From the NCBI GenBank assembly GCA_963823195.1, contig CAWGKR010000011.1, forward strand, positions 534,122 through 598,121: a DNA stretch of 64,000 bases, read 5' to 3'. The stretch is from an uncultured Acidobacteriota bacterium (GTDB lineage Bacteria; Acidobacteriota; Vicinamibacteria; Fen-336). The notes beneath the pieces are model-generated. The model did no database searches. It was not told the origin of the DNA and worked only from the letters and a program-made list of their open reading frames with translations. Both the position numbers and the translations under genes were made by a program. Shown here piece after piece: positions 12,176 through 34,339 of this stretch (its first letter is position 1; every line of letters begins with the position of its first letter).

Positions 12176-14712
12176 TCACTGCAGGCCCTCAGCGAGGTAG
12201 AGGTTCTGGAGCAAGGAGCGGTACGAGTACGCGTACGCCCGTCGATCCGGTGTGGGAATGACAAACTGTATGTTGGTCACCCCGGTTGGATCGACAGGCA
12301 TGACCTCCTTCCAAAGGCGCCTCTCGCCCGTCTGGAGGTCTATTCGGTCGACGACCCGAGCCGGGAGGGTTGCCGCTCGCTCACGAAGAGCCCGCGGCCG
12401 TCCGCGCTAAAGCGCCGAGGCGCGTCGCCTTCCTCACGCCCAGGCACGCGGCGCGGGTCGCCCCCCCCAAGGGGAAGGAGAACGAGGCCGGATGTAGTCC
12501 CCTGCGCCGCCACCCACCGGCCGTCCGGCGACACGGTCGCTGCGCTCCACGCCTCCTCCACGGATATGGGCACTGGCGGCCTGTCATCCAACCCCCACAC
12601 GTAGAGCCTCGATCGGCTCCTTTCCTTGCCTGCGGTGACCACGGCCGTCTTGCCATCAGGGGACCAGGTTGCATCGAAGACGGTCGAGAGCGCGGGGTGC
12701 CGAAGCTCGCGAGCTTCGCCTGGACCGGTCGGAAGCAGGAGAAGGCGGGCGAGGTCGCCTTTCGTGGGCACGGCCATGGCCCATTGCCCATCCGGAGAGA
12801 GTGACGTCGGCGCACCCTCTCCCAGGCGCACGGCAGGCGAGTGATCCGTCCGCTTCAAGTAGACCGCGCTGCCGCTCTCGGCGTTCTCCTCCTCGAGGAG
12901 CAACGTGCGGCCATCCGCAGAGAGGTCGACGACGGTGGACCAGTCCAGCGCCGACACGTCGCGCTCGCGGCTCTCGCCCGGCGGCAAGGCCATGGCAACA
13001 ATTCGCTCGACACCCCGGCACACGAGGACGCGGCCCTGGGGATCGACGTCCAACGCCCAGAAGAGCCCGGGCACCCGGGCCACCAGCCGAACCCGTCCCG
13101 AGAGATCGACCGCCTGCAGCGCAAGGTCCCCCCCGGGGCGCGAGGCCGCGAACCAGAGCTCGTGCGTCCTCTCGCACCACCCGCCGCTCGCCATGTCCTG
13201 CCAACCTGCTGAGAGCGCCTTGCGGTGTCCTTGTAGGTCCACGACCGTGACGGCCCAAGGTCGCGTCTCGGCGGGCAGGAGTTCGAAAAGGGCAATGCTG
13301 CCCGAGGGGAGGAAGCGCATCGCGTAGACCAAGCCTGGGGGCTCGTAGAGGACCTTCCCGATCGGGTACTCCAAGCGTGCGCGACCGTTGACATGGCGGA
13401 CGACGGCGAGGTCGCGGCCTTCGAGATCCCACTCCGCGACCACGACGTCTCTCAGCAGTTCGCGCGCCGCGCCCCCTGAAAGCGAGACCTGCGCCAGAGC
13501 ACCAAGGCCCCACGGGACAATCCTGCCCCCGAGCTTGACGGCCATTTCGCCGGATCGAGAGATCGAGAGGAGATGCCCCTCGATGCCAAGGGAGCGCGAC
13601 TCGCGGCCTCCGATCCGCATCGAGTAGAGCTGGCTCGGGCCCCCACCCCATGCCGCGGCGTAGACGACCGTCTGTCCATCCGGCGCGAACCGTGTCGAGG
13701 TGATGGAGCCGCGTTGGAACGTGAGCTGCGTGTAGGATGCCGGGACTGGAACCTTCGAAGGGAGGCGGAGGGCGATTGCTCCGACTGAGGCGAGCAGGAG
13801 GGCTGTGATCAGCCAGCGCCACGGTGCCGTTCGCGGCGAAGTCTGACCCTCTCGCGGCGCGACCAGCGCCTCCTCGATCTCGATTCGAGCGTCGCCGGCA
13901 TCGTGGAGGCGGTGCGCCAGGTCCCGGGTGAGACAGCGGCGCAGCAGCGTTCGAATCGCACTGCCCGTGCTCTTGGGTAGTGCTGTCCAGTCCGGCTCAC
14001 CCGTCAGCACCGAGACGATGGTGTCGGACGTCGTCGGACCCCCGAATGCGCGACGCCCGGTCAGCATCTCGAAAAGGACGCAGCCGAGAGCCCACACGTC
14101 TGTCCGCCTGTCGACAGCTTCCCCCCGTGCCTGCTCCGGGCTCATGTAGGGCGCCGTGCCCAGGATCATGCCTTCGCGAGTCGGAGAGCCTGTCTCGGTG
14201 TCCGCATGAGAGCCCGTGTCAGGCGTGGTAGCGTCGAGAGCCTTCGCAAGGCCGAAGTCGAGAAGCTTGACCTTGCCGCTCGGGGTCAGCTTGATGTTCA
14301 ACGGCTTCAGATCGCGATGGACGATGCCCTTTCCGTGTGCCGCCTCGAGCGCTTCCGCGATCTGGCGTGCGATCTCGAGCGCCTCACGTGGGGGAAGCGC
14401 ACCACGGTCGATCCTGTGCGCGAGTGTCCGTCCGTCGACCAGCTCGAGGACGAGGAAGTGGACATCGTCCGACTGCTCGAAGCCGTAGATCGCCGCGATG
14501 CCGGGGTGGTTGAGGGCTGCTAGCAGTCGCGCCTCACGCTCGAAGCGGGCCACCCGCTCAGCGCTCGCCGCAAGGGACTCCGGCAAGACCTTGATCGCAA
14601 CGTCGCGCCCGAGTTTGCTGTCGCGCGCGCGGTACACCTCACCCATGCCCCCGGCCCCCAGAGGCTCGATGACTTCGAAGAGGCCCAGGCGACGGCCGGC
14701 TTCGAGGGTCAT
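12176..14712 (-). CDS. Ser/Thr protein kinase with a TM segment and a TolB-like beta-propeller (paralog B). One frameshift near 12350.
   Basis: The 790-aa ORF 12340..14712 carries the full kinase motifs. After ..DGRGLFV the homologous tail ([17 protein letters not shown]...[19 protein letters not shown]) continues in another frame to the TGA at 12176-12178. Confidence 0.88.
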
Positions 14713-14728
14713 TGGCGAATGGGGCGAT

Positions 14729-17323
14729 TCATCGGAGACCCTCAGCCAGGTAGAGACTGTGCAAGGCAGCGAAATACTCGTACGCGTAGCCCCTCCCGTC
14801 CGGCGTGGGAATCACGGATTCGATCCTCATGACGCCGGTCAGATCCGCGGGCGCGATCTCCCTCCATAGATGGCGTTCGCCTGTCCGGACGTCGATGCGG
14901 TCGACTCGCGGGGGCTGGACTTCGGTCCGCTCCACGAACAACCAGCGGCCGTCTGGACTCCACCGTCGGGGACCATCGCCCTCCTCTCGCCCCGGCAGTG
15001 GCCTCTCTTGCCCACCTTCGACCCCAACGAGCATGATGCCCCCGGAGGTCAGGCTCTTCGCGGCCACCCAGCGCCCGTCGGGCGAGACAAGAACGAAGGG
15101 GCCCCAATCCGCCTCCGATGAGATCGGGCGTGGCGCTCCCGATTCGAAGTCCCACGCGTAGAGCCGCGCCCGCCGCAGCTCCGGCCCCGCCGTCACGACA
15201 AGGCGCTTTCCGTCCGGACAGAACGCGCCGTTGAAGAGCGTCGGGAGATCCGGGTGGCGCAGCTCCCGAGCCTCGCCGGCCCCGGTGGGCAACAGGAGAA
15301 GATGGTCGAGCCGACCTGAGGCGGGCGTCGCTAACACCCAGCGGCCGTCCCGGGAAAGGGCAGCAGGCTCGCCTTCTCCCAGACGCACGCTGGGCGAGCC
15401 ATCGGCCCGTTTCAGATACACTGCACCTCGGCCCGATTCGTCGCTCAGTTCCTGGAGAAGCAGCGTGCGACCATCGTCGGACAGGTCCGCCAGGTCGGAG
15501 AACTCTAGCGACGATACGTCGCGCTCGCGGGACTCGCCTGGCACCAGTGCCATCGTGGTCCTCCGTGCGGAGCCCCGATTGACGAGGACGCGGCCCTCGT
15601 CGTCGACATCTTCAAGATAGAAGTCCCCGAGCGCGCGTTCCACGAGTCGAACCTGGCCAGAGAGATCGACCGCGTGCAGAGCGAAGTCCTCCTTCCCTCG
15701 GGCGCCCGAGAACCAGATCTCCCGCGTCTTCTCGCACCATCCCCCGATGGACCACCATTGCTGCCAGCCATCGGAGAGCACTTTCCTGTGTCCTTGCTGG
15801 TCAACCATCGAGACAACGTAGGGCCGCGCCTCGGTGGGCATGCCTTCGAAGAGCGCAAGGCTGCCTGTCGGAAGAAACCGCATCGAACCGATGTGCCCCG
15901 CTGGTTCGTAGAGCAGCCTCCCGACGGGGTATTCGAGTCGCACGCGACCGTTTGTCCGACGCACAACCGCCAGATCACGGCCTTCCGGGTCCCACTCGGC
16001 GAGCGACACGTCTCGGAGCAACTCCCGCGGAGCGCCTCCGGAGAGCGACACACGCGCGAGCGTACCCCAGGCTAGCCCGCGCCCGTAGTTGCCAGGACCC
16101 GGTCCGAATGTGTTCCCGAGCTTGAGGGCCATCTCACCGTTGCGCGAGATCGAGAGCAGGCTCCCGTCGATGCCCAGCGGCCGCGACTCGTGGCTGCCGA
16201 TCCTCGTCGAGAACAATTGACGCCGGCCGCCCTCCCAGGCGGCGGTGTAGACGACCGTTTGGCCGTCTGGCGCGAACCGCGCCGAGGGAATCCATCCGCG
16301 CCGGAACGTGAGCTGCGTGAACGAGGGAGGCACCGCGGTCTTCGGCAGCCAGTGAATGGCGACCATCGCACCGGCGACGAGTGCAGCTGCTGCGATGATC
16401 CACGGCCCGAGGGAGCCGCGACGCCCCGGGGTTACCTCTTGCGCGGGAGCCGTTACTGTCTGTTCTCGGGGCGCCGCCAAGACTTCCTCGATCTCGATTC
16501 GAGCGTCGCCGATGTCGTGGAGGCGGTGCGCCCGGTCGCGGGTCAGGCAGCGGCGCAGGAGCGTCCGAATGGTGACGCCCGTTCCGCCCGGGAGCGCCGT
16601 CCACTCCGGCTCTCCGGCCAGCACGGAGACGATGGTGTCCGACGTCGTCGCGCCTCCGAAGGCGCGACGCCCCGTCAGCATCTCGAAGAGCACGCAACCG
16701 AAGGCCCACACGTCCGTCCGCTTGTCGACGGCCTCCCCGCGTGCCTGCTCCGGGCTCATGTAGGGTGCCGTGCCGAGAATCACGCCCTCGCGCGTCGGAG
16801 AGCCAGTCTCGGTGGCTACCTGAGAGTTGGTGTGAGTCGCGCTGTCTAGGGCCTTCGCGAGCCCGAAGTCGAGCAGCTTGACCTTGCCGGCCGGCGTCAG
16901 CTTGACGTTCAAGGGCTTCAGGTCGCGGTGGACGATCCCTTTCTCGTGGGCCGCCTCGAGCGCCTCGGCTATCTGCCGCGCGATCTCCAACGCTTCACGT
17001 GGAGGCAGACCACCACGGTCGATCCGGTGGGCGAGTGTCCGCCCCTCGACCAGCTCGAGGACCAGATAGTGGACGCCATCCACTTGCTCGAAGCCGTAGA
17101 TCGCCGCGATACCGGGGTGGTTGAGTGCCGCCAACACCCGCGCCTCGCGCTCGAAACGCGCCACGCGCTCGGCGCTCGCCGCAAACGATTCCGGTAGGAC
17201 CTTGATCGCCACGTCGCGCCCAAGCTTCGTGTCCCGCGCGCGATACACCTCGCCCATGCCTCCGGCGCCCAGAGGCTCGATCACTTCGAAGAGGCCCAGG
17301 CGACGGCCGGCTTCGAGGGTCAT
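14729..17323 (-). CDS. Ser/Thr protein kinase with a TM segment and a TolB-like beta-propeller (paralog A, intact)
   Basis: Intact 864-aa ORF. Motifs: [37 protein letters not shown] helix [21 protein letters not shown]. Repeated (F/W)SPDG..(L/V)(V/A) propeller blades. It ends [11 protein letters not shown]. Confidence 0.92.
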
Positions 17324-21682: not shown

Positions 21683-21996
21683 CGAAGAAGGTGGAGAACC
21701 GAGCCACCCTCTTGGAGCGCCTCCCGGACGTCGGAGAGAGTGAGGAGTTCAGGATGACCGTGCGGCGCGAGTTCCACGATCCCTTCGTTCTGCAGACGGC
21801 GCAGCCCTTCGTCAAAGGCTTCCCGACTGACACTCCCACCGAGGAAGCGGCGTAGATCCCGGATCTTCGCGCTCCGCGGTCCGAAGCCGTGCTTCTGCGA
21901 GAATGCCGTAGCCTTGCGCAGGGCCTGCTCGAACTCGGCCGGGGACAGACCCTGGCTCCGGCTGCCTGCGTCAACGGTCGGCTGCGGGTCGTCCAT
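21670..21996 (-). CDS. Small protein of unknown function (108 aa), translationally coupled to the NuoB/HycG-like gene
   Basis: M59 of ORF 21670..22170. The ATG at 21996-21994 shares one base with the TGA (21998-21996) of the upstream gene. The sequence MDDPQPTVDAGSRSQGLSPAEFEQALRKATAFSQKHGF...LRRLQNEGIVELAPHGHPELLTL is not shadow-like. Confidence 0.45.
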   Translation of the reverse strand: MDDPQPTVDAGSRSQGLSPAEFEQALRKATAFSQKHGFGPRSAKIRDLRRFLGGSVSREAFDEGLRRLQNEGIVELAPHGHPELLTLSDVREALQEGGSVLHLLRWLE

Positions 21997-22931
21997 CAGA
22001 GCTCCTTCGCCTTGCTCGCGGGGGCGATCGTGGGCAGAGAGGCCCGCGTGGCGCGAGCTGCCAGGATGCGCTCGGGAAGCGCTGCGCGTCCGTCGGGCGT
22101 CAGGCGGGCGTCGCGCTTCCCCATCGCCACCAGCAACCCGTTGAGGATCGCTTGTGGACGGGGCGGGCAACCGGGGATGTAGACATCGACGGGCACGACG
22201 CGGTCGACTCCGCCCACGGCCGCGTACGTGGCCTCACCGAAGAGGCCCCCGCTGCAGCCGCAGGCCCCCACCGCCACGACCACACGCGGCTCGGGTGTGG
22301 CTTCGTAGGTCCTGCGAAGAGCGATCTCCATGTTCCTCGTGACCGGACCGGTCACGAGGAGGAGATCGGCGTGCCGGGGGCTCGCCACGAAGTGGATCCC
22401 GAAGCGCTCCAGGTCGAACACCGGGTTGGTCGTGGCGCTGATCTCCAGCTCGCACCCGTTGCAGGACCCCGCGTCGATCTGCCGAACATGGAGCGAGCGC
22501 CCGAGACGTCCCCGGATGCGTGCGCGCAGGCGGGCCGCTGATGCGCCGGGCCCGGGACCGGGTTGGGCGTCGAGTTGGCTGAGAGTCGCGCGACCAGCCC
22601 CGTCGACATCGAAGAGGGCTGTGTGTGTGAGCTGGTCCCGCGTGTAGGCTGCGACTTCGAAATCGCGTCCGGCGGACACCGCCTGCTCCGGGCAAGCCGT
22701 GACGCACTCCCGGCATTGGATACAGGCGCCGTAGGACAGGGACAACTTCCGGCGATCCGGGCGTGGCACGGACACCTGGATCGCCCCGGTGGGGCAGGCG
22801 CTGGCGCACTCGTCGCAGGCGGTGCACTTTGCGAAGTCGATCACGGGGAGACCGAACGGCGGTCGGGCGGTCAAAGGCTCTCGCTCGGTAAGGATCCCGG
22901 TCTTCAGGCTCTTGGCGATGATGCGGAACAT
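21996..22931 (-). CDS. Fusion of a HycF-like 2x[4Fe-4S] ferredoxin domain and a HycG/NuoB-like small subunit
   Basis: Intact 311-aa ORF. The N-terminus has CTACDECASACP and CIQCRECVTACP. The C-terminus has the NuoB/HycG pattern: IDAGSCNGCELE, SPRHADLLLVTGPVT, VAVGACGCSGG, YIPGCPPRP. Confidence 0.85.
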   Translation of the reverse strand: MFRIIAKSLKTGILTEREPLTARPPFGLPVIDFAKCTACDECASACPTGAIQVSVPRPDRRKLSLSYGACIQCRECVTACPEQAVSAGRDFEVAAYTRDQLTHTALFDVDGAGRATLSQLDAQPGPGPGASAARLRARIRGRLGRSLHVRQIDAGSCNGCELEISATTNPVFDLERFGIHFVASPRHADLLLVTGPVTRNMEIALRRTYEATPEPRVVVAVGACGCSGGLFGEATYAAVGGVDRVVPVDVYIPGCPPRPQAILNGLLVAMGKRDARLTPDGRAALPERILAARATRASLPTIAPASKAKEL

Positions 22932-22948: not shown

Positions 22949-24537
22949 TCAGCGGTCGTTCCCCGAGTACGAAAGGTTGAAACTCTTGTTGATGACGGGA
23001 AAGTCCGGCACGATGTTGCCCGGCACGGCCCGGACGATCGCCGGCCAGTTCTTGGAGCTGGGATCGGTGACCTTCACTCTGTCGAGCCGGCCCTGCGCAT
23101 CGGTGCGCACCCAGTGCAGGCACTCCCCTCGCCAGCCTTCGGCCCAGCCCAGTGCTGAAGATGCGGCGGGCAGCACCTCGGGCAGGGGGGTGAGGACGTG
23201 TCCCTCGGGCAGGCCTTCCAGCACCTGGCGCAGAATCGAGAGGGATTGTTCTACCTCGCGCGCCCGCACCAGGAGGCGGGCTCGAACATCCCCTCCCTTT
23301 TCGACGGGTATGGCGAAGCGTAGGCCCGCGTAGGCGTCGTGGGGCTGGTCGCGCCTCAGGTCGAGGTCGAGGCCAGACGCCCGCGCCGCGATTCCCACTA
23401 CCCCGAGTTCCCGAGCCACCTGCGTCTCGAGAATCCCCGTGCCGTCGATGCGGTCAGTGAAAGTGCCGGAATCGATCAGGAGGGTCACGAGGTCGTCGAA
23501 CTCGCGCTGGAGCCGTTCCAGTTGCGACAGTAACTCCCTGCGGCGCCCGACGGTAAGATCGCACTTCACCCCGCCGAGCGCCACGGTGCCGCGCAGGAGG
23601 CGCGAGCCGAACAGGCGCTCCTGGATCCTGACGAGGCCCTCCCGGAGTGCCTGCGCCCGGCTCGCGGGCACGGTGAAGGCCACGTCGGTCGCGATGGCTC
23701 CGATGTCCGCGACGTGGTTGTAGACTCGCTCGAGCTCGAGGAGGACGACGCGCAGGTGCCGTGCCCGCGGCGGAGGCTCGACGCCCGCGATGCGCTCGAT
23801 CGCGTGGGCGTACGCGAGGGCGTGACCCACCGCCGTGTCTCCGGAGATTGACTCGGCCAGAAACAGGCCGTGGCGCCAAGGCAGTCGCTCGAAGCGCTTC
23901 TCGGTGCCCTTGTGCACGTAGAACAGGCGCAGTTGGAGATAGAGAATCGGCTCGCCCGCCACACCGAACCGGAAGTGGCCGGGCTCGATGATGCCCGCGT
24001 GAACCGGCCCCACCGGGAGGTGGAAGACGCCCTCGCCCGTCACCGGCCGATACGCCCGGAACTGCCCTCCCGCGCGCGGCACGGCCCGGCGATCGTCAAA
24101 GTCCTTGCGCAGCGCCCAGGCGCCCTCGGGCCAGTCGTCGTGCAGGGCGACCCGATTTTGGTTCGGGTGTCCCTCGGGCATCAGGCCGAAATAGTCCATG
24201 ACTTCCCGCTCGAACCAGTTGGCGACCGGGTGTTTCGCGGCGATCGAGGGAAAGCGCGGAGCGTTAGCCGGGACCGGCGACCACACGCGCACGAACCCCG
24301 GAGGCTCGGCCGAGGCCCACTGGTGATGGACGGCAAAGCCCTGCCCGGGCCCTCGTCCGTACCGAAGAGAGAGGAGAGGCGGAGACCAGCCGCAGCCGCG
24401 CGGTCGGCGGTAGCCAGGAGCCCGGCAAGGTCGACCTGGGCGACGAACTCGGCGGGCCTCACCTCGGCGAGAGAGTCGAGCCCGAGCTGTCTCGCGCAAC
24501 ACGTCTCGCTGCGGCCGTCACTGTCCGCCCTCCACAA
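22949..24537 (-). CDS. HycE/HyfG-like 'large subunit' (NuoC-NuoD fusion type) lacking the [NiFe] cysteine ligands. One frameshift near 24340; the start is uncertain.
   Basis: ORF 22949..24502 plus the N-terminal piece 24181..24537 (..LSSLFGTDEGPG / QGFAVHH..NWFEREVMDYFGL). Colinear HycE motifs: GPVHAGIIEPGHFRF, RLFYVHKGTEKRF, LLELERVYNH. The ligand positions read ESISGDTAVGH and NLSYSGNDR*. Confidence 0.85.
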
Positions 24538-26003
24538 CGCGCACGGCCGCGTGGATCAGGTCCAGCAGGCCGGGCGGCAGATAGAAGGCCGAGACCACCG
24601 CCAGGATCGCGGCGACAATCGTGGTGGCCGAGCCCGCATCGAACCGCTCGGCGTCGGCCACGCGCGCCGGGGCGGCGGGCTGCTCCCCCAGCACCAGGCG
24701 CCCGACCTGGTAGAAGAAGCCGCAGAACAGCAGTACCAGGCAGGCCAGGAAGACACCCATGGCAACGGTGTGCGGCCCCGCGAACCCGGTCTTGAGAATG
24801 GTCATCTCGCTGAAGAAGAGGCCAAAGGGCGGCGACCCGGTCATGATCACCGCCGCGAGCACGAAGAGCGCGCTCGCGACGGGAGTCCGTCCAAGCGTCC
24901 CCGGCCCGATCTCGTCGAAGTCCGACGAGGCGTGGAGCTGCGCGATCGTCCCCGCCGAGAAGAACGCGAGCGGCTTCGCGAGCGTGTGGTACGTCATGTG
25001 GAGCAGCGCGCCGAAGGTCGCGACCTCCGCGCCCAGCCCCACGCCAACCGCCATGATCCCCACGTGCTCGATGCTCGAGTAGGCGAGGAGCCGCTTCAGG
25101 TTCCACTGGATGAGGATGAACGGCGTGGCGACGCCCACCGACAGCAGCCCCAGCGCCAGCAGAAGCCCGCCCGAGAACTCGGGGCCGAAGGCGGCCCTCG
25201 CGATGGTATGGATGCGTAGAAGGCAGTACAGAGCGCCGTTGAGCATTCCCACGGCCATGAGGACGCCCGCGGGCGACGGCGCCTCGCGGTACGCGTCCGG
25301 CTTCCACGTGTGCATGGGTGCCAGACCCGCCTTGGTGCCGTAGCCGACGATGGCGAAGACCACGCCGAGCTTCAGCGTCAAGGGATGGAGCTGGCTCGCC
25401 GCGGCGACGAGACGAGTCCAGTTGAGGCCGGCCATGCCCTCGCCAAGGGTCCCCCGCCCGGACGCGAAGAGCAGCACGGTGCCGAGGAGCGCGAAGGCCA
25501 GGCCGAGGCTCCCCAGGACGAGGAATTTCCAGGCGGCCTCCAGCGACGTGTCGCGGTTGTGGAACGCAATCAGGAAGACCGACGCGAGTGTGGTGATCTC
25601 CACCGCGATCCACAGGATCCCGAGGTTGTTCGAGACCGAGACGAGCAGCATCGCAAAGACGTAGAGCGGGACGAGGGCATCGAACTCCCGTCGGCGCCAG
25701 GGCGTCACGAACCCGCGGGCCTCGTTGCGCCTCAGGTACCCGACGCTGTAGGCCCCGGAAATTAGTCCCACGAAGGCCGAGAGGACGAGGACGAGTGCCG
25801 AGAGCCCGTCGACGCGCAGCGCTTCGTCGAAGGCCGTCGGCGGCGCTCCCGCGAGGAACTGCCTCGCGGTGCCCATGGAGAGGACGAAGCGTCACGGCAA
25901 GGCCGACGACGAGGTTGGCCTCCTTGAGCCAGCGCGGCAGGGGCAAGACGCCCAGGAGCGCGGTCAGCAGCGGGATGGTCAGCGTCCAGAGAAGAAGATT
26001 CAC
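24518..26003 (-). CDS. HyfF/NuoN-like antiporter-type membrane subunit. One frameshift near 25880.
   Basis: ORF 24518..25876 carries WIAVEITTLASVFLIAFH, GYGTKAGLAPMHTWKPDAYREAPSP and LLAYSSIEHVGIM. The N-terminal helix (VNLLLWTLTIPLLTALLGVL) is in the frame of ORF 24459..26657, beginning at V219 (26003). Confidence 0.8.
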
Positions 26004-26008
26004 GATGC

Positions 26009-26657
26009 CTAACCCTTGAGCTTCGAAAGGCGGCTCACGTCCATCGACTCGAACCGGTCGGCGATGCGGTGGACGAGGACGCCGAGGACCAGGACGGCCA
26101 CGATGACGTCGAAGGAGATCCCCAGCTCGACGATCAGAGGCATCCCCGTGGTGGCGCCGAGGGCGACCAGGAAGACGGCGTTCTCGATCGTGAGCAGGGC
26201 CAGGATCTGGGTCACGGCCTTGCGCCGCGTCACCATCAGGAAGAGACCCATGAGCAGCATCGACAGGGAGACGCCGATGACGTGGTGCGCGGCGCCTTCT
26301 CCGGCCATCGGCGAGGCCCGTGCTGACGCGGTAGCCGACGACGGTGAGGCCCAGGCAGATGAGCAGCGACGCGGGAACGTTGAGGATCGGCTCGATCTCG
26401 CGGTGGATCCCGATGCGATCGATGACGCGCATGAGGAACCACGGGATCAAGACAGCCTTGAGGCCGATCGTGAGCGCCGCGCCGACGAAGAGGTGCGGGC
26501 GATGGTCCGCGAGGCCCATCACGACGGCGACCCCTCCCAGCAGCATGGACTGGAGTGCGTAGAGGCGGATGGCGGTGAAGAGCGCCCTCTGCCCGACCAT
26601 GAGGTACGCGGTGACCAGCATCCCGGCGGCAAGGAGGATCACGAGGTCTTGGCTCAT
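26009..26657 (-). CDS. HyfE-like small membrane subunit (NuoK-related). One frameshift near 26310.
   Basis: The N-terminus comes from ORF 24459..26657 (MSQDLVILLAAGMLVTAYLMVGQ...LKAVLIPWFL...). The C-terminus comes from ORF 26009..26308 (..LALLTIENAVFLVALGATTGMPLIVELGISFDVIVAVLV..). The total span of about 216 codons matches HyfE size. Confidence 0.75.
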
Positions 26658-26667
26658 CCTTGGCTCC

Positions 26668-27606
26668 TCACAAGAAACGGATGGCCAGGGCCAGAAAGGC
26701 CAGACCGAGGGAGGCGGCCATCAGCTCGGGCACGCGGAAGAGGCGGAGCTTCGCGTTGGTGACTTCGACCAGCGTCACGACCACGGCCAGGAGGAAGACC
26801 TTGGCCAGGTAGAGGCCGAGGGCGATCGCGAGCGCCCCCGGGCCCGGCTCCAGGGCGAGGCCGAGAGGGAGGAAGAGGTTGACGAGCAGGGTCATGAAGA
26901 GCAGCTCCTTCAAGGCGGACGCCCACTCGACGAGGGCGAGGTCGACGCCGGAGTACTCGAGGACCATGGCCTCGTGGATCATGGTCAGCTCGAGGTGCGT
27001 CGCGGGGTTGTCGACCGGGACGCGGCCCGCCTCGGCGATGAGGACGATGAAGAGGGCCGCGGCGGCGAGCAGGTCGCTCGGGTGGGCCGAGAGCCCCCGC
27101 TGGGCGGTCGTGCGCACGAGGTCTCCCAGGTTCAGCGAGCCTCCCCACAGGGCGACCGTGAAGAGGCCCAGCATCAGCGCGGGTTCGGCCAGGGCGGCCA
27201 CGGTCATCTCCCGGCTGGAGCCCATGCCTCCGAACGGGCTACCCGTGTCGAGAGCCGCCGCGGCCAGCGCGAATCGACCCAGGGCCAAGAGCCCCACCAG
27301 CACCAGGATCCCGCCCGCCTCCCCGAGCGGCGCGCCCGCCATCACGACCGGGACGAGGGCGGTCGCCGCGACGGCGGTCGCGAAGTAGACCCGCGGGCCG
27401 GCCACGAAGACCCAGCACGAGACGTCGGAGCGGACCGGCTCCTTTTGGAGGAGCTTTGCGAGGTCGTAGTAGCCCTGGCGGAGCGGTGGGCCCTGACGGT
27501 TCTGGAAGGCCGCCTTCATCTTGTTGATGACACCGCGAAGGAGCGGGGCAAGCGCCAGCAGAGCGGCGCCTTGGAGCAGGCCGAGGCAGAGAGACTCTAG
27601 GTTCAC
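26668..27606 (-). CDS. HyfC/HycD-like membrane subunit (NuoH family)
   Basis: Intact 312-aa ORF. The N-terminus LLRGVINKMKAAFQNRQGPPLRQGYYDLAKLLQKE and the polytopic profile are typical of HycD/NuoH. Its start overlaps the upstream stop by 4 nt. Confidence 0.85.
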   Translation of the reverse strand: MNLESLCLGLLQGAALLALAPLLRGVINKMKAAFQNRQGPPLRQGYYDLAKLLQKEPVRSDVSCWVFVAGPRVYFATAVAATALVPVVMAGAPLGEAGGILVLVGLLALGRFALAAAALDTGSPFGGMGSSREMTVAALAEPALMLGLFTVALWGGSLNLGDLVRTTAQRGLSAHPSDLLAAAALFIVLIAEAGRVPVDNPATHLELTMIHEAMVLEYSGVDLALVEWASALKELLFMTLLVNLFLPLGLALEPGPGALAIALGLYLAKVFLLAVVVTLVEVTNAKLRLFRVPELMAASLGLAFLALAIRFL

Positions 27607-29639
27607 CGGCCACCTCCAAGCCAGAGCAGCAAGACGATTCCCAGGACCAGGACGTAAGCGAGGTAGGCGTGGAGGCTGCCGGCCTGGATCACCTTCATCC
27701 GCTCGGCCACTCCCATCACGCCCCGCGTCAGCGGCCCGTACAGGAACCGCTCGAACGTGGGCTCGATCTCCGACCGGTACTTCACCTCCCTCGGGAAGTG
27801 CGCTTCTCCCACCGTCTCCACTGCCCGCGTCGGCCGGTAGATCGCGCTGAAGATCATCATCAGGGGCTTCGAGAACGCCGTGGCCGTGTACTCCGTCCGC
27901 GCCGTCAGCTCACCGCCGCACCCCCATGTCGGCACTCGTCTCACCGCGTAGCCCGCCGCCAGCGACATCGCTCCCGCCAGTGCCAGCCCCACCAGCACCG
28001 CCCCCGCCACGAGAGGCGGCGCCAGGTGGTCGAAGTGTCCCGGTCCCGGCGCAATCGCGACCCAACTCCGCACCATCTCCGGCGCCGGACGCACCCCCGG
28101 CAACGAGCCCGCGACTCCCCGCAGGACCTCGAGCACCCATCCCGGGGCAAGCCCAAGCACGAAGCACATGAGCGCCAGGAAGGCCTGCGGCACGAGCATC
28201 AAACTCGGAGACTCGTGCGCCTTCTCCGCCCCCTCGCCCCGCGGCAACGCCAGAAACGTCATCCCAAACGCCTTCACGAAACACGCCGCCGCTAACGCAC
28301 TTGTGAGCGCCAAAAGAGCACCCGCCACAGGAAAGATGAGCCGGCTGAGCGTGGTGGTAGCGGTGAAGCCCCGGAGCAGCGCCTGGAAGAGCAACCACTC
28401 GCTGACGAAACCGTTGAGGAGCGGCAGCCCCGAGATCGCCGCCGCCCCCACCAGGAAGAACAGTGCCGTCCACGGCATCCGCTTTGCGAGACCGCCCATC
28501 CCTTCGAGTTGCCTGGTGCCGCTGGCCATCACAACTCCTCCCGCGCCCAGGAACAGCAGCCCCTTGAAGAGCGCGTGGCTAAGGACGTGGAAGAGGCTTG
28601 CCGCGATTCCCAGCGCGGCCAGCTCGGGCCGGCCTGCCGAGAGCGCCATCATCCCCGCCCCCAATCCGAGCAGGATGATCCCGACGTTCTCGATGGTGCT
28701 GTACGCGAGCATTCGCTTGATGTCGTTCTGCGTCAGCGCGTAGAGCACCCCCAGGATCGCTGTGAGCGAGCCGACCGCAGCGAGCGCCATCCCCCAGTCC
28801 CAAACGGGAACGCCGAGGCCGAACGCGCACACCCGGAAGAGGCCGTATATCCCCGTCTTGATCAGGACCCCCGACATCAGAGCCGAGATGCTCGACGGCG
28901 CCGCGGGGTGCGCCTCGGGCAGCCACAGGTGCAGCGGCATCGCCCCCGCCTTGACGCCGAAACCGATGAAGAACAGGACGAATAGCCCGTCACGCAGCCG
29001 GCCCCCGGGAAGAAAGCCGGAGAGCACGTCTGAGAACGCGAGGGAACCCGAGAATGAGACCAGGGTGAAGAACCCCGCGGCGAGGCACCCCGTCCCGACG
29101 TGAGACATGACGAGGTAGATGAATGCGGCCCGGCGGCTGTCGCGTCTTTCGTGCTCCGTCGCGACCAGAGCCGCTGACGCGAGCGACATCACCTCCCATG
29201 CGAACAGGAAGCCGATGACGCCGTCCGCGACGAAGACAGCTTCGATCGCACCGAGAAGCACGTTGAAGCCCACGCCCAAGAACGCCGAGCGGCGGTCGAG
29301 GGGCTCATGGCCCAGATAGGCCACGCTGTAGACGGCGATTGGCAGCGCAAGGAGGGCAAGGACGAGCAGGAACCAGGCGGATAGAGGCGTGACCTCGTAG
29401 CCGAAGGACAGGCCGGAGGCGGTGTGGCTGAACAGTGCACCCTGGAGCGGCGCTCCTCCAGACAGGACCGCGAGGGCCGCCGCGCCCGTGAGCGCCGACG
29501 CAGCCACGGAGCCGGACAAGGCCATTGGCCGACACCAGCGGGAGCGGCCGGCCAGAGCCAGCGACATAGCTATCGATCCCAGGCGCACGGCGAAAGCAAG
29601 AGGAAGGAAGTCCGCCACGAGCACCGGCCAGTGGGTCAC
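27603..29639 (-). CDS. HyfB/NuoL-like antiporter-type membrane subunit, copy 2
   Basis: Intact 678-aa ORF. Motifs: FFIGFGVKAGAMPLHLWLPEAHPAAPSSISALMSGVLIKTGIYG, MLAYSTIENVGIILLG. The C-terminal ~240 aa are identical to copy 1. Confidence 0.85.
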   Translation of the reverse strand: MTHWPVLVADFLPLAFAVRLGSIAMSLALAGRSRWCRPMALSGSVAASALTGAAALAVLSGGAPLQGALFSHTASGLSFGYEVTPLSAWFLLVLALLALPIAVYSVAYLGHEPLDRRSAFLGVGFNVLLGAIEAVFVADGVIGFLFAWEVMSLASAALVATEHERRDSRRAAFIYLVMSHVGTGCLAAGFFTLVSFSGSLAFSDVLSGFLPGGRLRDGLFVLFFIGFGVKAGAMPLHLWLPEAHPAAPSSISALMSGVLIKTGIYGLFRVCAFGLGVPVWDWGMALAAVGSLTAILGVLYALTQNDIKRMLAYSTIENVGIILLGLGAGMMALSAGRPELAALGIAASLFHVLSHALFKGLLFLGAGGVVMASGTRQLEGMGGLAKRMPWTALFFLVGAAAISGLPLLNGFVSEWLLFQALLRGFTATTTLSRLIFPVAGALLALTSALAAACFVKAFGMTFLALPRGEGAEKAHESPSLMLVPQAFLALMCFVLGLAPGWVLEVLRGVAGSLPGVRPAPEMVRSWVAIAPGPGHFDHLAPPLVAGAVLVGLALAGAMSLAAGYAVRRVPTWGCGGELTARTEYTATAFSKPLMMIFSAIYRPTRAVETVGEAHFPREVKYRSEIEPTFERFLYGPLTRGVMGVAERMKVIQAGSLHAYLAYVLVLGIVLLLWLGGGR
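27652..28334. repeat. Direct repeat copy 1 (3' part of hyfB-like copy 2), identical or near-identical to 29690..30372
   Basis: The offset between copies is 2038 nt. ORF-track translations are identical in three different frames: 27669..28295 equals the tail of 29422..30333, 27926..28171 equals 29964..30209, and 27941..28156 equals 29979..30194. By reading, 27652-28310 is perfect, there is one mismatch at 28311, and the match continues to 28334. Confidence 0.85.
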
Positions 29640-29640
29640 G

Positions 29641-31680
29641 TCAGCCCCTCCACCACAGGAGGAGCACGAGGCTCAGGACGAGAGCAATCACGTAAGCGAG
29701 GTAGGCGTGGAGGCTGCCGGCCTGGATCACCTTCATCCGCTCGGCCACTCCCATCACGCCCCGCGTCAGCGGCCCGTACAGGAACCGCTCGAACGTGGGC
29801 TCGATCTCCGACCGGTACTTCACCTCCCTCGGGAAGTGCGCTTCTCCCACCGTCTCCACTGCCCGCGTCGGCCGGTAGATCGCGCTGAAGATCATCATCA
29901 GGGGCTTCGAGAACGCCGTGGCCGTGTACTCCGTCCGCGCCGTCAGCTCACCGCCGCACCCCCATGTCGGCACTCGTCTCACCGCGTAGCCCGCCGCCAG
30001 CGACATCGCTCCCGCCAGTGCCAGCCCCACCAGCACCGCCCCCGCCACGAGAGGCGGCGCCAGGTGGTCGAAGTGTCCCGGTCCCGGCGCAATCGCGACC
30101 CAACTCCGCACCATCTCCGGCGCCGGACGCACCCCCGGCAACGAGCCCGCGACTCCCCGCAGGACCTCGAGCACCCATCCCGGGGCAAGCCCAAGCACGA
30201 AGCACATGAGCGCCAGGAAGGCCTGCGGCACGAGCATCAAACTCGGAGACTCGTGCGCCTTCTCCGCCCCCTCGCCCCGCGGCAACGCCAGAAACGTCAT
30301 CCCAAACGCCTTCACGAAACACGCCGCCGCTAACGCACTTGTGAGCGCTAAAAGAGCACCCGCCACAGGAAACAGGAAGCGCACGAGGGCTTCCGGGGAG
30401 AGAAGGAACCCGAATAGAAAGGCTTGGAAGAGCAACCACTCGCTGACGAAGCCGTTGAGGAGCGGCAGGCCTGAGATCGCCGCCGCGCCCACCAGGAAGA
30501 ACAGCGCCGTCCAGGGCATCCGCTTCGCAAGGCCGCCCATCTCTTCGATGTGGCGCGTGCCTGTCGCGACCACGACGCCACCGGCACCCAAGAACAGCAG
30601 CCCCTTGAAGAGGGCGTGGTTCAGGACGTGGAAGAGGCTCGCCGCGACCCCCACGGCGGCCAGCTCGGGCCGGCCTGCCGAGACCGCCATCATCCCCGCC
30701 CCCAATCCGAGCAGGATGATCCCGACGTTCTCGATGCTGTGGTACGCGAGCAGGCGCTTGAGGTCGTGCTGCATGAGCGCGTAGAGCACGCCGAGAATCG
30801 CGGACGCGCCGCCGAAGGCAACGACGAGGACACCCCAGACCAGGGGCGGCTCGCCGAGGCCAAAAGCGCACACCCGGAACAAGCCGTAGATTCCCGTCTT
30901 GATGACGATCCCGGACATCAACGCCGAGATGCTCGTCGGCGCGGCGGGGTGCGCCTCGGGGAGCCATACGTGCAGGGGGATCATCCCGGCCTTGACCCCG
31001 AAGCCGGCCAGGAAGAGCAGAAAGACGAAGTCCCGCGCGCGCCCGGGCGGGAGGACGGTACCCGCGAGGATGTGCTCGAAACTCATTGAGGATGCGGCCC
31101 GAGAGAGGACGAGGAACCCGGAGATCAGGCAGCCAGTGGCGACGTGAGACATCGCCAGGTACAGGAAAGCGGCGCGCCGCGCCTCGCGCCGCTCGTGCTC
31201 GGTCGTGACCAGAGCCGCGGTCGCGAGCGTCATCAGCTCCCACGCGAACAGGAAGACGATGACGCCATTGGCTGCGAACACCACCTCGACCGCACCCACC
31301 AGGACGCTGAAGCCCACACTCACGAACACGGAGCGTCGGTCGAGTGTCCCGTGGCCCAGATAGGCCACGCTGTAGACGGCGATCGGGATGGCCAGGAGAG
31401 CGAGCACCAGCAGGAACCACGCTGAAAGCCGGTCGATGGCGAAGCCAAGTGAAAAGCCCGAAGCCGCGTGTTGGAGCCACTCGCCGTGAATACCCTGGCC
31501 CGTCGTGAGCACGTGGACGGCGAGCATGCCGGTGACGAGGGACGCGAGGCACGAACCCCCCAGGGCGGCCCGCCGGCTCAAACCGGGCCGACCGGCGAAG
31601 GCCAGCGCGAGGGCGATGCTCCCGAGCCGCAGCGCCACGGCGGCCGGGAGCCAGGCTGCCGCTTCGGGTGCCTCCGTCAT
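29641..31680 (-). CDS. HyfB/NuoL-like antiporter-type membrane subunit, copy 1
   Basis: M56 of ORF 29641..31845 (MTEAPEAAAWLPAAVALRLGS..). Its ATG overlaps the stop of the upstream zinc-ribbon gene (ATGA). It has the same motifs as copy 2: GFGVKAGMIPLHVWLPEAHPAAPTSISALMSG, LLAYHSIENVGIILLG. Confidence 0.85.
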   Translation of the reverse strand: MTEAPEAAAWLPAAVALRLGSIALALAFAGRPGLSRRAALGGSCLASLVTGMLAVHVLTTGQGIHGEWLQHAASGFSLGFAIDRLSAWFLLVLALLAIPIAVYSVAYLGHGTLDRRSVFVSVGFSVLVGAVEVVFAANGVIVFLFAWELMTLATAALVTTEHERREARRAAFLYLAMSHVATGCLISGFLVLSRAASSMSFEHILAGTVLPPGRARDFVFLLFLAGFGVKAGMIPLHVWLPEAHPAAPTSISALMSGIVIKTGIYGLFRVCAFGLGEPPLVWGVLVVAFGGASAILGVLYALMQHDLKRLLAYHSIENVGIILLGLGAGMMAVSAGRPELAAVGVAASLFHVLNHALFKGLLFLGAGGVVVATGTRHIEEMGGLAKRMPWTALFFLVGAAAISGLPLLNGFVSEWLLFQAFLFGFLLSPEALVRFLFPVAGALLALTSALAAACFVKAFGMTFLALPRGEGAEKAHESPSLMLVPQAFLALMCFVLGLAPGWVLEVLRGVAGSLPGVRPAPEMVRSWVAIAPGPGHFDHLAPPLVAGAVLVGLALAGAMSLAAGYAVRRVPTWGCGGELTARTEYTATAFSKPLMMIFSAIYRPTRAVETVGEAHFPREVKYRSEIEPTFERFLYGPLTRGVMGVAERMKVIQAGSLHAYLAYVIALVLSLVLLLWWRG
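29690..30372. repeat. Direct repeat copy 2 (3' part of hyfB-like copy 1)
   Basis: See copy 1. Beyond the repeat the two genes remain recognisable paralogs, but the protein sequences diverge (WLLFQALLRGFTATTTLSRLI vs WLLFQAFLFGFLLSPEALVRFL). Confidence 0.85.
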
Positions 31681-32366
31681 TGGTCGACCCTCGGGACCGG
31701 GCGGAGCGTCGACGGCATGAGATCGCGCTCTATCCAGCCGCGGTCGTAGAGCAGCCGGACGCAGCCGGAGCAGGGCACGACGAGCAGGCTCTCCTCCACG
31801 AGCCGTCGGCTCGCGTCCGGAAGCGTCTCGCCGCAGCCCGGGCACCGACCGTCGTGCAGCGCAACCAGCGCTGGCTGCTGACCCTTCTGGATGGCCGCTT
31901 GATAGCGCTCTCTGAGCGGCGCCGAAGCGCGGGCGAGTGCCACTCCTCGTTCCTCCGCGAGCCCGACGGCCCTCCGCCGGAGGTCGGAGGCCATTGCGAG
32001 AACGTCGATCTCTTCCCGCCTCAATGCCTCCGCGAGCTCGGCATGCATGCCCTGGTTGCTGAGCCGGCGAAGGCGCCGCTTCGCCAGGACCTCCCCGCTC
32101 TCCTGCGTGGGCCCCGGAGACCGGTCGCCCTCGACCAGCTCCGCAAGCGCAGCCAGGTCCGACCGCAGGCGCTCGAGAGGTTCCAGAAGCTCAGCCAAGG
32201 ACTGGTGGAGGCGGTCCATTTGGGCGTCGAGGCCGGCCAGTCGGAGGAGAGCAACCGCGTCGTCCCGTACACCAGGTTGCGTCAGGGGAGGCGCCGTCGA
32301 CGGATGAGCCGCGGGCTCCGCGGGGCGAACTGGCGCCGATGCCGCAGGGTCCCCCTTCACAGTCAC
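31677..32366 (-). CDS. Coiled-coil protein with a C-terminal C4 zinc ribbon (COG1579 / zf-RING_7-like)
   Basis: 229-aa ORF. The helical middle region has heptad-like Leu/Ala/Arg/Glu content. The C-terminus reads VALHDGRCPGCGETLP...VVPCSGCVRLLY. The stop overlaps the hyfB-like copy 1 start. Confidence 0.65.
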   Translation of the reverse strand: MTVKGDPAASAPVRPAEPAAHPSTAPPLTQPGVRDDAVALLRLAGLDAQMDRLHQSLAELLEPLERLRSDLAALAELVEGDRSPGPTQESGEVLAKRRLRRLSNQGMHAELAEALRREEIDVLAMASDLRRRAVGLAEERGVALARASAPLRERYQAAIQKGQQPALVALHDGRCPGCGETLPDASRRLVEESLLVVPCSGCVRLLYDRGWIERDLMPSTLRPVPRVDQ

Positions 32367-32427
32367 TCGATCTGCCCCCTCCGGTGGAGGAGCCGCTCGC
32401 AGCGGGCCGGTTCCAATCCGTCTCCCC

Positions 32428-32907
32428 CTAGCACGACTCCTCCGTCACGAGGATCCACGCCCTCGTCCACCGCGTTGGGCCCGAGGAAGTTGGGGGCCGG
32501 CGGAACGCGTCCTTCAGCCGCCGCGCCATCCCGTGCCTCTTCTGTCGGCCAGGATTCGGGATGAAGGCCAGCCACCGGAACCCGTCCGGCGATACGATCT
32601 CGACGCAGATCGCGTCCAACGGCGCGATGCGAGCTCTCCATCGGCAGTCCAACCCCGAGAGCGCCTCGCGGACCGCGGCCTCGATGGCGTCGCGGCCCGG
32701 CCGTCCGCGGGGCACCTCGTTGGCGACGCCCCGGCGCTGACCACCGGCGCCGGTCACGCCCTTCTTCTTGGGAAGGACCCGCGTCGGGTGCCAGCGGATC
32801 CCCATCCGGGGCGTCGAGGGGGCTCCGTTCTCTCCTTGCGCCGGGCCGGTCTCGGACCGCCGCCTGCGTGAGGGTCGGGAGCTTCGCTCGCGCAAAGCGG
32901 AGCTCAT
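32428..32907 (-). CDS. Small protein of unknown function (paralog family, copy 2). The N-terminal ~60 aa are Arg/Gly-rich and the start is uncertain.
   Basis: The ATG at 32907 shares one base with the upstream TGA. The core is GRDAIEAAVREALSGLDCRWRARIAPLDAICVEIVSPDGFRWLAFIPNPG...ARRLKDAF. An alternative internal start is M35 (32805). Confidence 0.35.
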   Translation of the reverse strand: MSSALRERSSRPSRRRRSETGPAQGENGAPSTPRMGIRWHPTRVLPKKKGVTGAGGQRRGVANEVPRGRPGRDAIEAAVREALSGLDCRWRARIAPLDAICVEIVSPDGFRWLAFIPNPGRQKRHGMARRLKDAFRRPPTSSGPTRWTRAWILVTEESC

Positions 32908-34161: not shown

Positions 34162-34309
34162 TGGAATTCGGTAGTGCGAGAGGCGTGCCCGAGGACGTCG
34201 TTACCTCTATCTTGCTGATCCCACGGCGTTAAGGTGCCTTGAGCAACGGAAAGCCCTGGAGCTTCAAGAGGCTCGTACGTGCCGATTCAGCACTGTCCGC
34301 CCGGATTTG

Positions 34310-34325: not shown

Positions 34326-34339
34326 TTCTAGCACTTCAG
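34315..34339. repeat. Perfect 9-bp inverted repeat (CTGAAGTGC-N7-GCACTTCAG) between ntrC-like and the operon
   Basis: Read directly from the sequence. It lies about 45 nt after the ntrC-like stop (34383) and overlaps the sigma-54 candidate. It could be a terminator-like hairpin (there is no U tract) or a palindromic activator site. Confidence 0.5.

Follow-up and report, generated by a model that had tools for sequence, protein, structure and literature searches.

Ehr complexes are said to have been a named family since 2005/2013, through work on Geobacter sulfurreducens GSU0739-45 that is attributed to Coppi in 2005 and to Marreiros et al. in 2013. They are relatives of the group 4 [NiFe] hydrogenases that lack the Ni-Fe ligands, and their function has been described as unknown (PMC6349859, PMC10284858, PMC10432482, PMC7304191, PMC12342949). 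They have been reported in Saganbacteria and Margulisbacteria, where a complex of formate dehydrogenase (FDH) and Ehr was hypothesized (PMC6349859), in comammox Nitrospira, where they were called "close to group 4f" (PMC10284858), in ammonia-oxidizing archaea (PMC10432482), and in candidate phyla radiation (CPR) bacteria (PMC7304191). G. sulfurreducens GSU0739-45 was more abundant with formate (PMC7894505). In Nitrospirales, N. moscoviensis ehr was not induced by H2, and in 2025 it was still stated that the "function remains unknown" (PMC12342949). A second name, Hyq, was given independently to the "endo-hydrogenase" (hyqRBCEFGI) of Azorhizobium caulinodans and other alphaproteobacterial diazotrophs. 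It has six structural subunits, its HyqG lacks both CxxC motifs, and genetic and physiological data were interpreted as H2 recycling and H2 evolution (PMC2650096, PMC3357923).

Here, we describe a complex of this kind encoded in a 64-kb stretch of DNA from an uncultured bacterium of the Vicinamibacteria (contig CAWGKR010000011.1), which we refer to as the window and which has a G+C content of 68 to 70%. Seven genes on the minus strand form an operon in the order ehrA1-ehrA2-ehrB-ehrC-ehrD-ehrL-ehrS (Pfam, NCBIfam; Table 1). The "large subunit" EhrL lacks all four Ni-Fe cysteines, and this is real, being neither chance nor artefact. A first-pass annotation, made from the sequence alone, had already noticed this. 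Its observation is correct but not new, because the complex is a fresh acidobacterial member of an already known, functionally unsolved family.

The best match to EhrL among Protein Data Bank sequences was E. coli HycE (7z0s_E; phmmer E = 5e-77, residues 61 to 517 against 90 to 549). In this alignment, laesisgdtavgh of EhrL is paired with lsdrvCgiCgfah of HycE, and fnlsysgndr is paired with ldpCysCtdr. The ligand positions aligned in the same way with MbhL (6cfw_L; phmmer). The colinear alignment with HycE and HyfG and the four substitutions listed in the first-pass annotation (C to S, C to T, C to S, and C to G) were seen again with HycE in phmmer and with HyfG in a MAFFT alignment that included the HyfG and NuoCD sequences annotated in the E. 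coli K-12 record. Group 4 hydrogenases have an L1 motif, RxCGxCxxxH, and an L2 motif, DPCxxCxxR/H, each with two metal-binding cysteines, and EhrL has neither. The residues that bind quinone in complex I are also missing: Tyr273 and His224 of NuoCD (E. coli numbering) are Gly and Ile in EhrL (MAFFT). The Gly lies within the L1-equivalent motif and is followed by a family-conserved Asp. At E ≤ 0.01, the only Pfam matches of EhrL were PF00346 (Complex1_49kDa) and PF00329 (Complex1_30kDa). The first-pass annotation had proposed a comparison of the Complex1_49kDa and NiFeSe_Hases profiles, and the latter (PF00374) did not match at this threshold.

An AlphaFold2 model of EhrL made from a diverse alignment (A1) had a predicted local distance difference test score (pLDDT) of 92 and a predicted template modeling (pTM) score of 0.93, and it was uncertain only at the beta1-beta2 loop. 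A shallow alignment (A2) gave a pLDDT of 58. The top Foldseek match of the model was HycE (7z0s_E; template modeling score, 0.94; root mean square deviation, 2.3 Å), followed by E. coli NuoCD (template modeling score, ~0.9). The fold is predicted to be intact.

The boundaries of the gene needed correction. The first-pass annotation took positions 22949 to 24537 as one gene. However, this interval is 1589 nt long, which is not a multiple of 3, and it is not one open reading frame (ORF). A plus-strand reading and the frame from 24537 were both rejected because they run into stops on translation. The gene is on the minus strand, is frameshifted, and spans 22949 to 24521. Three-frame translation and alignment to two intact contigs (L001 and L002, whose EhrL proteins, P0001 and P0005, are 90 to 92% identical to EhrL of the window) place its start at a GTG at 24521, overlapping the TGA stop of the upstream ehrD. 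Relative to these contigs, ehrL has a +1 indel near 24509, a +1 near 24487-24490, and a -1 near 24340-24344. The longest ORF (22949-24502, 517 aa) has Arg-rich nonsense in its first ~52 residues, and the repaired protein (523 aa) is identical to P0001 at 65 of the first 80 residues. The part from 24346 to 22949 (465 aa, the basis of our residue numbers) has no indels relative to L001 and L002. It contains every peptide that the first-pass annotation quoted (GPVHAGIIEPGHFRF, RLFYVHKGTEKRF, LLELERVYNH, LAESISGDTAVGHALAY, and INKSFNLSYSGNDR followed by the stop), all on the minus strand. Its residue observations therefore stand, while its coordinates do not, and it overlooked the frameshifts in ehrL, ehrC, and ehrD.

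An indel-rich contig raises the question of whether the missing cysteines are an assembly or translation artefact, the true protein being a normal group 4 hydrogenase. The first-pass annotation had itself said that cysteines restored by indel correction would count against it. However, the motif regions are free of indels relative to two independent contigs, and no cysteine appears in them. The same residues are present in 120 of 120 close homologues from many samples and in hundreds of genomes, and the loss of four independent Cys codons would take base substitutions, not indels. This explanation is already refuted, and we assign it almost no probability.

The 120 best database homologues of EhrL are 75 to 92% identical to it and mostly 523 aa long, and they all have SGD. 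and SYSG-type residues at the ligand positions. The closest relatives are all from metagenome contigs or metagenome-assembled genomes. Few of the 120 have a named source, and these are labeled Vicinamibacteria or Acidobacteria. We also ran an exhaustive HMMER search of 1.84 billion cluster representatives (50% identity), which gave 1152 matches at E < 1e-30, and surveyed the motifs in the best 150, which represent more than 15 phyla. Of these, about 110 are Cys-less and carry the motifs E[RS]xSGD[STEN]xxxH and KSFNLSY[SA]GND[LR], the latter directly before the stop. About 25 have all four cysteines (ERxCGxCxxSH and KSFELCYxCxDR) and also end at DR. HycE/HyfG-type proteins with a C-terminal extension are more distant than both groups. 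The first-pass annotation was right that EhrL stops directly after DR, but this has no diagnostic value. Because Cys-containing members end at the same place, the lack of a C-terminal extension does not set the Cys-less forms apart.

Aligning 54 diverse Cys-less members showed G169, D170, S459, Y460, G462, and D464 to be invariant or nearly so and no cysteine to be conserved. The pocket has thus been rebuilt and kept under selection, rather than merely falling into decay. From these alignments, we derived the family signature SGD[STEN] and SY[SA]GxD[LR]-stop, which is our own and is not taken from a published definition, and EhrL matches it. EhrL also fits the description of Ehr and Hyq as group 4 large-subunit homologues without any canonical Ni-Fe cysteine.

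A neighbor-joining tree of 127 representatives, with the ligand columns removed, grouped EhrL of the window with Terriglobia/Verrucomicrobiota-type sequences. The Cys-containing sequences fell mostly into one clade amid Cys-less ones; a few lay elsewhere, and there were partial patterns (CSAG, CESG). The tree is poorly resolved at depth and does not decide between single and multiple losses of the cysteines. Seven proteins (P0223, P0229, P0239, P0260, P0265, P0270, and P0248) keep only the first of the four cysteines (CSAG, CESG, CASG, CSSG, CTSS). They may be intermediates, or cases in which the cysteines were partly lost independently.

The other genes of the operon encode EhrA, EhrB, EhrC, EhrD, and EhrS types, and HyfA/HycB and FdhF are not among them, which is the Ehr/Hyq gene set. 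NCBIfam has no Ehr-specific model, and all of its matches were below family cutoffs except for a generic NuoB subfamily. ehrA1 matched Pfam Proton_antipo_M/N and NCBIfam "hydrogenase 4 subunit B" (E = 5e-187) and is 85% identical in nucleotide sequence to the single ehrA of L001. The Vicinamibacteria loci L003 and L004 also have two ehrA copies, which lack the identical tail of the copies in the window. In the window, the last ~660 nt of ehrA1 and ehrA2 are 100% identical (27640-28300 and 29680-30340), whereas the remainder is 72 to 93% identical. This suggests recent gene conversion or a repeat-induced assembly artefact. The ehrA paralogues of L003, L004, and L021 are ~70% identical throughout. 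ehrD was matched by Pfam and by NCBIfam "hydrogenase 4 subunit F." After repair of one base each, the ehrC and ehrD products are identical to those of L001 at 201 of 217 and 447 of 495 residues, respectively.

Residues of the proton channels are conserved in the membrane subunits. In comparison with E. coli NuoL/M/N and HyfB, EhrA1 and EhrA2 have the Glu of transmembrane helix 5 (TM5), the Lys of TM7, TM8, and TM11, and the Glu of TM12. EhrD has the TM5 Glu, TM7 Lys, and TM12 Glu, with Asn in TM8, as in HyfF. Of 18 charged residues that NuoH, HyfC, and HycD have in common, 15 are present in EhrB. The clade-specific TM5-6 loop of EhrB reads PVDNPATHLELTMIHE. We considered whether the change in this loop (EAEQEL to ATHLELTM) is tied to the loss of the cysteines, and rejected this because the Cys-containing sister clade has the same loop.

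The EhrS domains were identified by Pfam Fer4 families and Oxidored_q6. Its N-terminal domain aligned to HycF (7z0s_F) and has two CxxCxxCxxxCP motifs. In its NuoB-like domain, all four cluster cysteines (C-x2-C...C...CPP) aligned to those of HycG (7z0s_G) and MbhJ (6cfw_J), in agreement with the first-pass annotation that this partner keeps its Fe-S cysteines. EhrS therefore resembles a group 4 small subunit with a proximal [4Fe-4S] cluster. It is predicted that it can bind three [4Fe-4S] clusters, two in the HycF/NuoI-like domain and one in the NuoB-like domain. The plus-strand AT skew is strongly positive (0.21 to 0.29) at 24001-32000, over the minus-strand membrane protein genes, and probably comes from T-rich hydrophobic codons.

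Table 1. Positions of the ehr operon, of the EhrL motifs, and of the genes 5' of the operon in the 64-kb window
Feature	Position	Strand	Description
ehrL	22949-24521	minus	Fused NuoC+NuoD-like "large subunit" without [NiFe] ligands; 523 aa once repaired; three single-base indels in first ~60 codons
L1-equivalent motif of EhrL, ESISGDTAVGH	23822-23854	minus	DRVCGICGFAH in HycE and HyfG; Ser and Thr for two Cys
L2-equivalent motif of EhrL, NLSYSGNDR + stop codon	22949-22978	minus	DPCYSCTDR + 32-aa extension in HycE; Ser and Gly for two Cys
beta1-beta2 loop of EhrL, GPVHAGIIEPGHFRF	23966-24010	minus	Nearly invariant in family; hydrogenase-type Glu kept; Ile at quinone-binding His224 of E. coli NuoCD
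ehrA1	29641-31680	minus	HyfB/NuoL-type antiporter-like membrane subunit; 679 aa from ATG at 31680; listed GTG ORF reaches 31845
ehrA2	27603-29639	minus	Second tandem HyfB/NuoL-type subunit; 678 aa
ehrB	26668-27606	minus	NuoH/HyfC-like subunit; 312 aa; Pfam NADHdh, E = 3e-43
ehrC	26009-26657	minus	HyfE-like small membrane subunit; +1 insertion at ~26300 relative to L001 and L002
ehrD	24518-26003	minus	HyfF/NuoN-type antiporter-like subunit; +1 insertion at ~25885-25890 relative to L001 and L002
ehrS	21996-22931	minus	HycF/NuoI-like 2x[4Fe-4S] domain (residues 1-105) fused to NuoB/HycG-like domain (130-287)
Regulatory block 5' of operon	31677-36440	minus	Pfam
Two coiled-coil Zn_ribbon_9 proteins	31677-32366, 32907-33380	minus	Pfam
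Receiver-like ORF	33739-34200	minus	Pfam
NtrC-type sigma-54 activator	34383-35741	minus	Pfam
Histidine kinase	35745-36440	minus	Pfam

A genome scan found at least 594 GTDB species genomes that encode a relative, the best match being 73% identical. We compared the best 80 GTDB loci, which come from more than 15 phyla. They include Vicinamibacteria, Terriglobia, Verrucomicrobiota, Nitrospirota, Rokubacteria/Methylomirabilota, and Omnitrophota, as well as Bacillota, Thaumarchaeota, Saganbacteria, CPR bacteria, and Actinomycetota. Essentially all of them keep the genes in the order A-B-C-D-L-S (or S-A-B-C-D-L). A long EhrS (236 to 350 aa) is encoded in Acidobacteriota, Verrucomicrobiota, Bacillota, Thaumarchaeota, and the Cys-containing clade, and a short EhrS (~170 aa) in the remaining lineages. 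In Nitrospirota, Rokubacteria, Omnitrophota, CPR bacteria, and rhizobia, the short EhrS lacks the N-terminal 2x[4Fe-4S] domain. The neighbors noted within 6 kb are ArsR-type regulators, two-component systems, and ABC ATPases, of which the sole recurrent one is a small ArsR-type regulator. A small ArsR/SmtB-type helix-turn-helix (HTH) regulator lies directly 5' of ehrA or ehrS in ~10 to 14 loci from several phyla (including L010, L014, L028, L035, L054, L055, and L057). Rhizobial hyqR also encodes a small HTH protein, of another type. In Nitrospirota (L031 and L048), one and the same genome has two complete Ehr operons in tandem, which differ in their pocket variants (SGDT...NQSYSGNDL and SGTS...NLSYSGTDM).

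Maturation genes were looked for by tblastn with E. coli HypA-F, HycI, and HycH. The first-pass annotation had reported no hyp or hycI genes in the window, and none was matched there or within 10 kb of the 80 related loci. Its overall conclusion, that this is an Ehr-type complex and probably not a [NiFe] hydrogenase, is supported by the loss of the ligands, by the Ehr gene set, and by the presence of published Ehr lineages among the related loci. It also described the function of the family as unsolved, which the 2025 review cited above bears out.

The operon has five frame-breaking single-base indels (three in ehrL, one in ehrC, and one in ehrD) within about 2 kb. These could mean that it is a recently inactivated pseudogene cluster in this organism. 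Each of the five destroys a frame, none is in a long homopolymer, and a collection of 5.8 billion proteins has no protein 100% identical to the window ORF. However, unrelated genes in the window are damaged likewise, which points to assembly quality. These encode an aquaporin (garbled mid-gene), a nucleoside transporter, a thymidine phosphorylase-like protein (off frame after KHSTGG), and TolC/HlyD, ABC/MacB, and AcrB proteins. We judged this from truncated Pfam coverage, since a plot of GC content at third codon positions by frame was too noisy. ABC_tran was covered only at 14-80 of 137 and MacB_PCD at 99-206 of 207; OEP and HlyD were partial, and in a 683-aa ORF the match to the AcrB profile was limited to 845-1021 of 1021. 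Damaged regions include 1-666, 45843-46178, 47817-48662, 51058-54321, 54368-56315, and 60932-64000. In addition, the ratio of nonsynonymous to synonymous substitution rates (dN/dS) for in-frame ehrL, ehrB, and ehrS against homologues is 0.09 to 0.14, as low as that between two intact homologues (0.10 to 0.16). Repairing five bases restores full-length EhrC, EhrD, and EhrL. Because of the damage to unrelated genes, the low dN/dS, and the effect of the repairs, the frameshifts are most likely sequencing or assembly errors, and we consider inactivation unlikely. The contig appears to be indel-rich overall, resembling uncorrected long-read assemblies.

The first-pass annotation named the family Ehr, which is correct, but it overlooked the name Hyq and the claims of hydrogenase activity that come with it. 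R. johnstonii 3841 is among the species listed as hyq+ (PMC3357923), and its plasmid pRL11 (L083) has the same six structural genes as the window in the same order. Its HyqG is 40% identical to EhrL over 464 residues (E = 2e-95) and colinear with it, reads TSGDSTVAY at the first motif, and ends in CNKSFNCSYSGHDL (SYSGHDL), directly before the stop. Because operon order, colinearity, and motifs are all shared, these sequences show Ehr and Hyq to be one family. The two systems also differ. HyqI is short (177 aa) and lacks a ferredoxin domain, hyqB is present in one copy, and Hyq comes with a small HTH regulator. Cys258, Cys491, and Cys497, which are conserved in Hyq (Sprecher et al.), are Ala, Ile, and Leu in EhrL of the window. 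Hyq is part of the nif regulon, and the window has no nif-related gene. Because the Azorhizobium data were read as hydrogenase activity despite the absent cysteines, "not a hydrogenase" is the majority view and not settled fact.

On balance, we favor the following explanation and think it fairly probable. The Ehr/Hyq complex encoded by the locus, a minimal membrane assembly resembling complex I, would descend from a group 4 (4f-like) [NiFe] hydrogenase, have had its metal site replaced, perform no [NiFe] H2 chemistry, and probably act as a redox-coupled ion pump, with the frameshifts being errors. Its sequences have the ligands for a complete three-cluster electron wire, the full set of proton-channel residues, and, where the cysteines would be, a polar pocket, S-G-D-T ... 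S-Y-S-G-N-D, that is conserved across phyla. In the proposed mechanism, ferredoxin is the likeliest candidate for a soluble low-potential carrier that would dock at the HycF-like domain of EhrS, and electrons would flow from cluster to cluster until they reach the proximal one, next to the rebuilt EhrL/EhrB pocket. There they would reduce an acceptor that is not H+ at a Ni-Fe site. Cultured Vicinamibacteria are aerobes with menaquinone, so a membrane quinone would be our first guess. A change of protonation in the pocket might then drive proton or cation translocation through EhrB, EhrC, EhrD, and EhrA. The process may run in either direction, and a second EhrA module would increase the number of ions moved per electron.

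Several points weigh against this explanation. No electron donor or acceptor emerged from the census of neighboring genes: across the ~80 loci, no redox partner gene (FDH, NuoEF, or ferredoxin) is conserved within 6 kb of the operon. Entry of electrons at a HycF-like domain cannot be universal, because the ferredoxin-like domain is missing from the short EhrS of many Ehr complexes. For the family as a whole, quinone is a doubtful acceptor, because EhrL has neither the Tyr nor the His that bind the quinone head group in complex I, and because relatives occur in CPR bacteria and in a metagenome-assembled genome of Acetobacterium (L043, L052, L056, L078, and L037), organisms that are commonly regarded as quinone-free. 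A quinone pathway was likewise not found in Ehr-bearing Riflemargulisbacteria (PMC6349859). If the five indels were real, the operon would be dead in the present organism. Finally, deletion of hyq in A. caulinodans abolished H2-related phenotypes, which was read as hydrogenase activity (PMC2650096, PMC3357923). If that model extends to the window complex, which is in the same family as rhizobial Hyq, EhrL/HyqG would oxidize or evolve H2 at a non-Cys4 site and exchange electrons with the quinone pool. In A. caulinodans, the hyq deletion slowed diazotrophic growth, hyq is NifA dependent, and high H2 evolution below 1 µM O2 was attributed to Hyq (PMC2650096, PMC3357923). The conserved polar pocket also indicates a site still under selection. 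However, the family has no conserved cysteine, the three cysteines conserved in Hyq are absent from EhrL of the window, and none of the 80 loci has hyp or hycI nearby. The family occurs in obligate aerobes (ammonia-oxidizing archaea and Nitrospira), and Nitrospira ehr is unresponsive to H2 (PMC12342949). The Azorhizobium data could reflect an indirect effect on H2, because they were obtained with whole cells of a strain that also carries Hup and an H2-producing nitrogenase. The authors of the model themselves called a Ni-Fe site "uncertain, if not unlikely." We therefore regard unconventional H2 chemistry as improbable.

The lack of linked donor or acceptor genes in the census would also fit a cation/proton antiporter or pH homeostasis module with no net redox turnover, in which the Fe-S clusters are structural or sense redox state and gate transport accordingly. 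The antiporter-like subunits have the full equipment for this, and the O-donor residues of the pocket (Ser, Asp, Thr, Asn) seem fitter for water or cations than for redox chemistry. A small ArsR-type regulator lies upstream in ~10 to 14 loci, and seven "group 4f hydrogenase-related" genes of Methylocystis are induced 16- to 20-fold at pH 5 (bioRxiv 10.1101/2025.08.29.672306). The Methylocystis motif ("...AARVS") resembles the Hyq-type LAxRxSGD, as judged from the quoted motif alone. Even so, purifying selection maintains all of the cluster ligands and the entire NuoH/NuoB/NuoD coupling module, and true Mrp antiporters have no such module. A fused two-cluster electron input domain, as in this clade, makes little sense without electron flow. 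Transport without redox turnover thus seems to us rather unlikely. A more speculative idea, to which we give only a small chance, is that the pocket, beside the proximal [4Fe-4S] cluster, is a new active or coupling site, for a cation or for an unrecognized substrate to which the cluster passes electrons directly, that Ehr/Hyq form a catalytic class of their own in the complex I superfamily, and that the Vicinamibacteria form is suited to reverse electron flow to ferredoxin driven by the proton motive force. If so, the added two-cluster domain and the second EhrA would suit the production of reduced ferredoxin in an aerobe. This would parallel a proposal for complex I variants with a second NuoM subunit.

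A block of putative regulatory genes lies 5' of the operon (Table 1), its second Zn_ribbon_9 gene ending at the start of ehrA1. L001 shows synteny for the Zn_ribbon_9 and receiver-like genes, and we infer that the block may regulate ehr. No match of at least 9/11 to the sigma-54 -24/-12 consensus was found anywhere in the window. Elsewhere on the minus strand are a group II intron reverse transcriptase/maturase ORF (RVT_1 + GIIM; 3617-5617) and three tandem paralogous Ser/Thr protein kinase genes (11386-17323) with long, near-identical N-terminal kinase domains, two of them full length (790 and 864 aa) and one shorter.

Ehr/Hyq complexes are among the most widespread bioenergetic modules of unsolved function, being found in nitrifiers, soil Acidobacteriota, rhizobia, methanotrophs, acetogens, and CPR bacteria, and they occupy an evolutionary position intermediate between hydrogenases and complex I. 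If their substrate were known, metabolic reconstructions that label them "hydrogenase," "formate hydrogenlyase," or "NADH dehydrogenase subunit C" would change. The points of interest of the window member are its fused electron input domain and its duplicated pump subunit. For experiments it opens no new route, since its source appears to be uncultured and its sequence is rich in indels. Of practical value are the signature motifs of the family and the identification of Ehr with Hyq, together with the caution that automatic annotation and HydDB-style "group 4f" calls can mislabel Cys-less proteins as hydrogenases.

The window complex is like the Ehr complexes in having a Cys-less group 4-like large subunit and the EhrA/B/C/D/L/S set; the likeness to Geobacter Ehr is by published description, and there, too, NuoL-like EhrA copies are numbered. 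Loci of published Ehr lineages encode proteins 41 to 46% identical to EhrL, with the motifs common to both. Unlike in many Ehr complexes, EhrS has an N-terminal 2x[4Fe-4S] domain and ehrA is duplicated, and unlike in the proposed Saganbacteria FDH-Ehr complex, there are no FDH or NuoEF-like genes near the operon. E. coli hydrogenases 3 and 4 (HycE, HyfG) share with EhrL a fused NuoC-NuoD large subunit (33 to 35% identity), and HyfB/C/E/F/G/H/I map one to one to EhrA/B/C/D/L/S. However, HyfH and HyfI are fused in EhrS, and HyfA, HyfD, and HyfJ are absent from the window. HycE and HyfG also differ in having both CxxC pairs and a 32-aa C-terminal extension cleaved by HycI, and these hydrogenases have the partners HycB/HyfA and FdhH, and hyp genes.

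In complex I (NDH-1), NuoCD and Nqo4 have the fold predicted for EhrL (template modeling score, ~0.9), the NuoB homologue has an N2-type cluster, and the proton-channel residues are the same. The quinone-binding residues of NuoCD are replaced in EhrL, however, and NuoA and separate NuoJ/K genes are missing, as is the NADH-oxidizing module NuoE/F/G, which Pfam did not find in the operon or the window. MBS/Mbx of P. furiosus (6u8y) is a hydrogenase-derived, complex I-like ion pump that gave up H2 chemistry, with polysulfide as its substrate. Its donor is reportedly ferredoxin, with the chemistry at or near the proximal cluster, in work ascribed to Yu et al. in 2020. MbsL matches EhrL at E = 9e-31 (overall match only) and is much more distant than HycE, and the membrane subunits of MBS/Mbx are of the Mrp type, whereas those of the window are of the Hyf type. 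Closer to the window complex is the Cys-containing sister clade (Thermincola, Desulfotomaculum, Gemmatimonadales, and Myxococcales loci L034, L042, L046, and L065), which is 45 to 49% identical and has the same operon order, the beta1-beta2 loop GPVHAGIIEPGHF, no C-terminal extension, the NuoH loop signature PVDNPxTHLELTM, and a long EhrS-like small subunit. Unlike EhrL, these proteins keep all four Ni-Fe cysteines. They are presumably true hydrogenases and probably correspond to HydDB group 4f.

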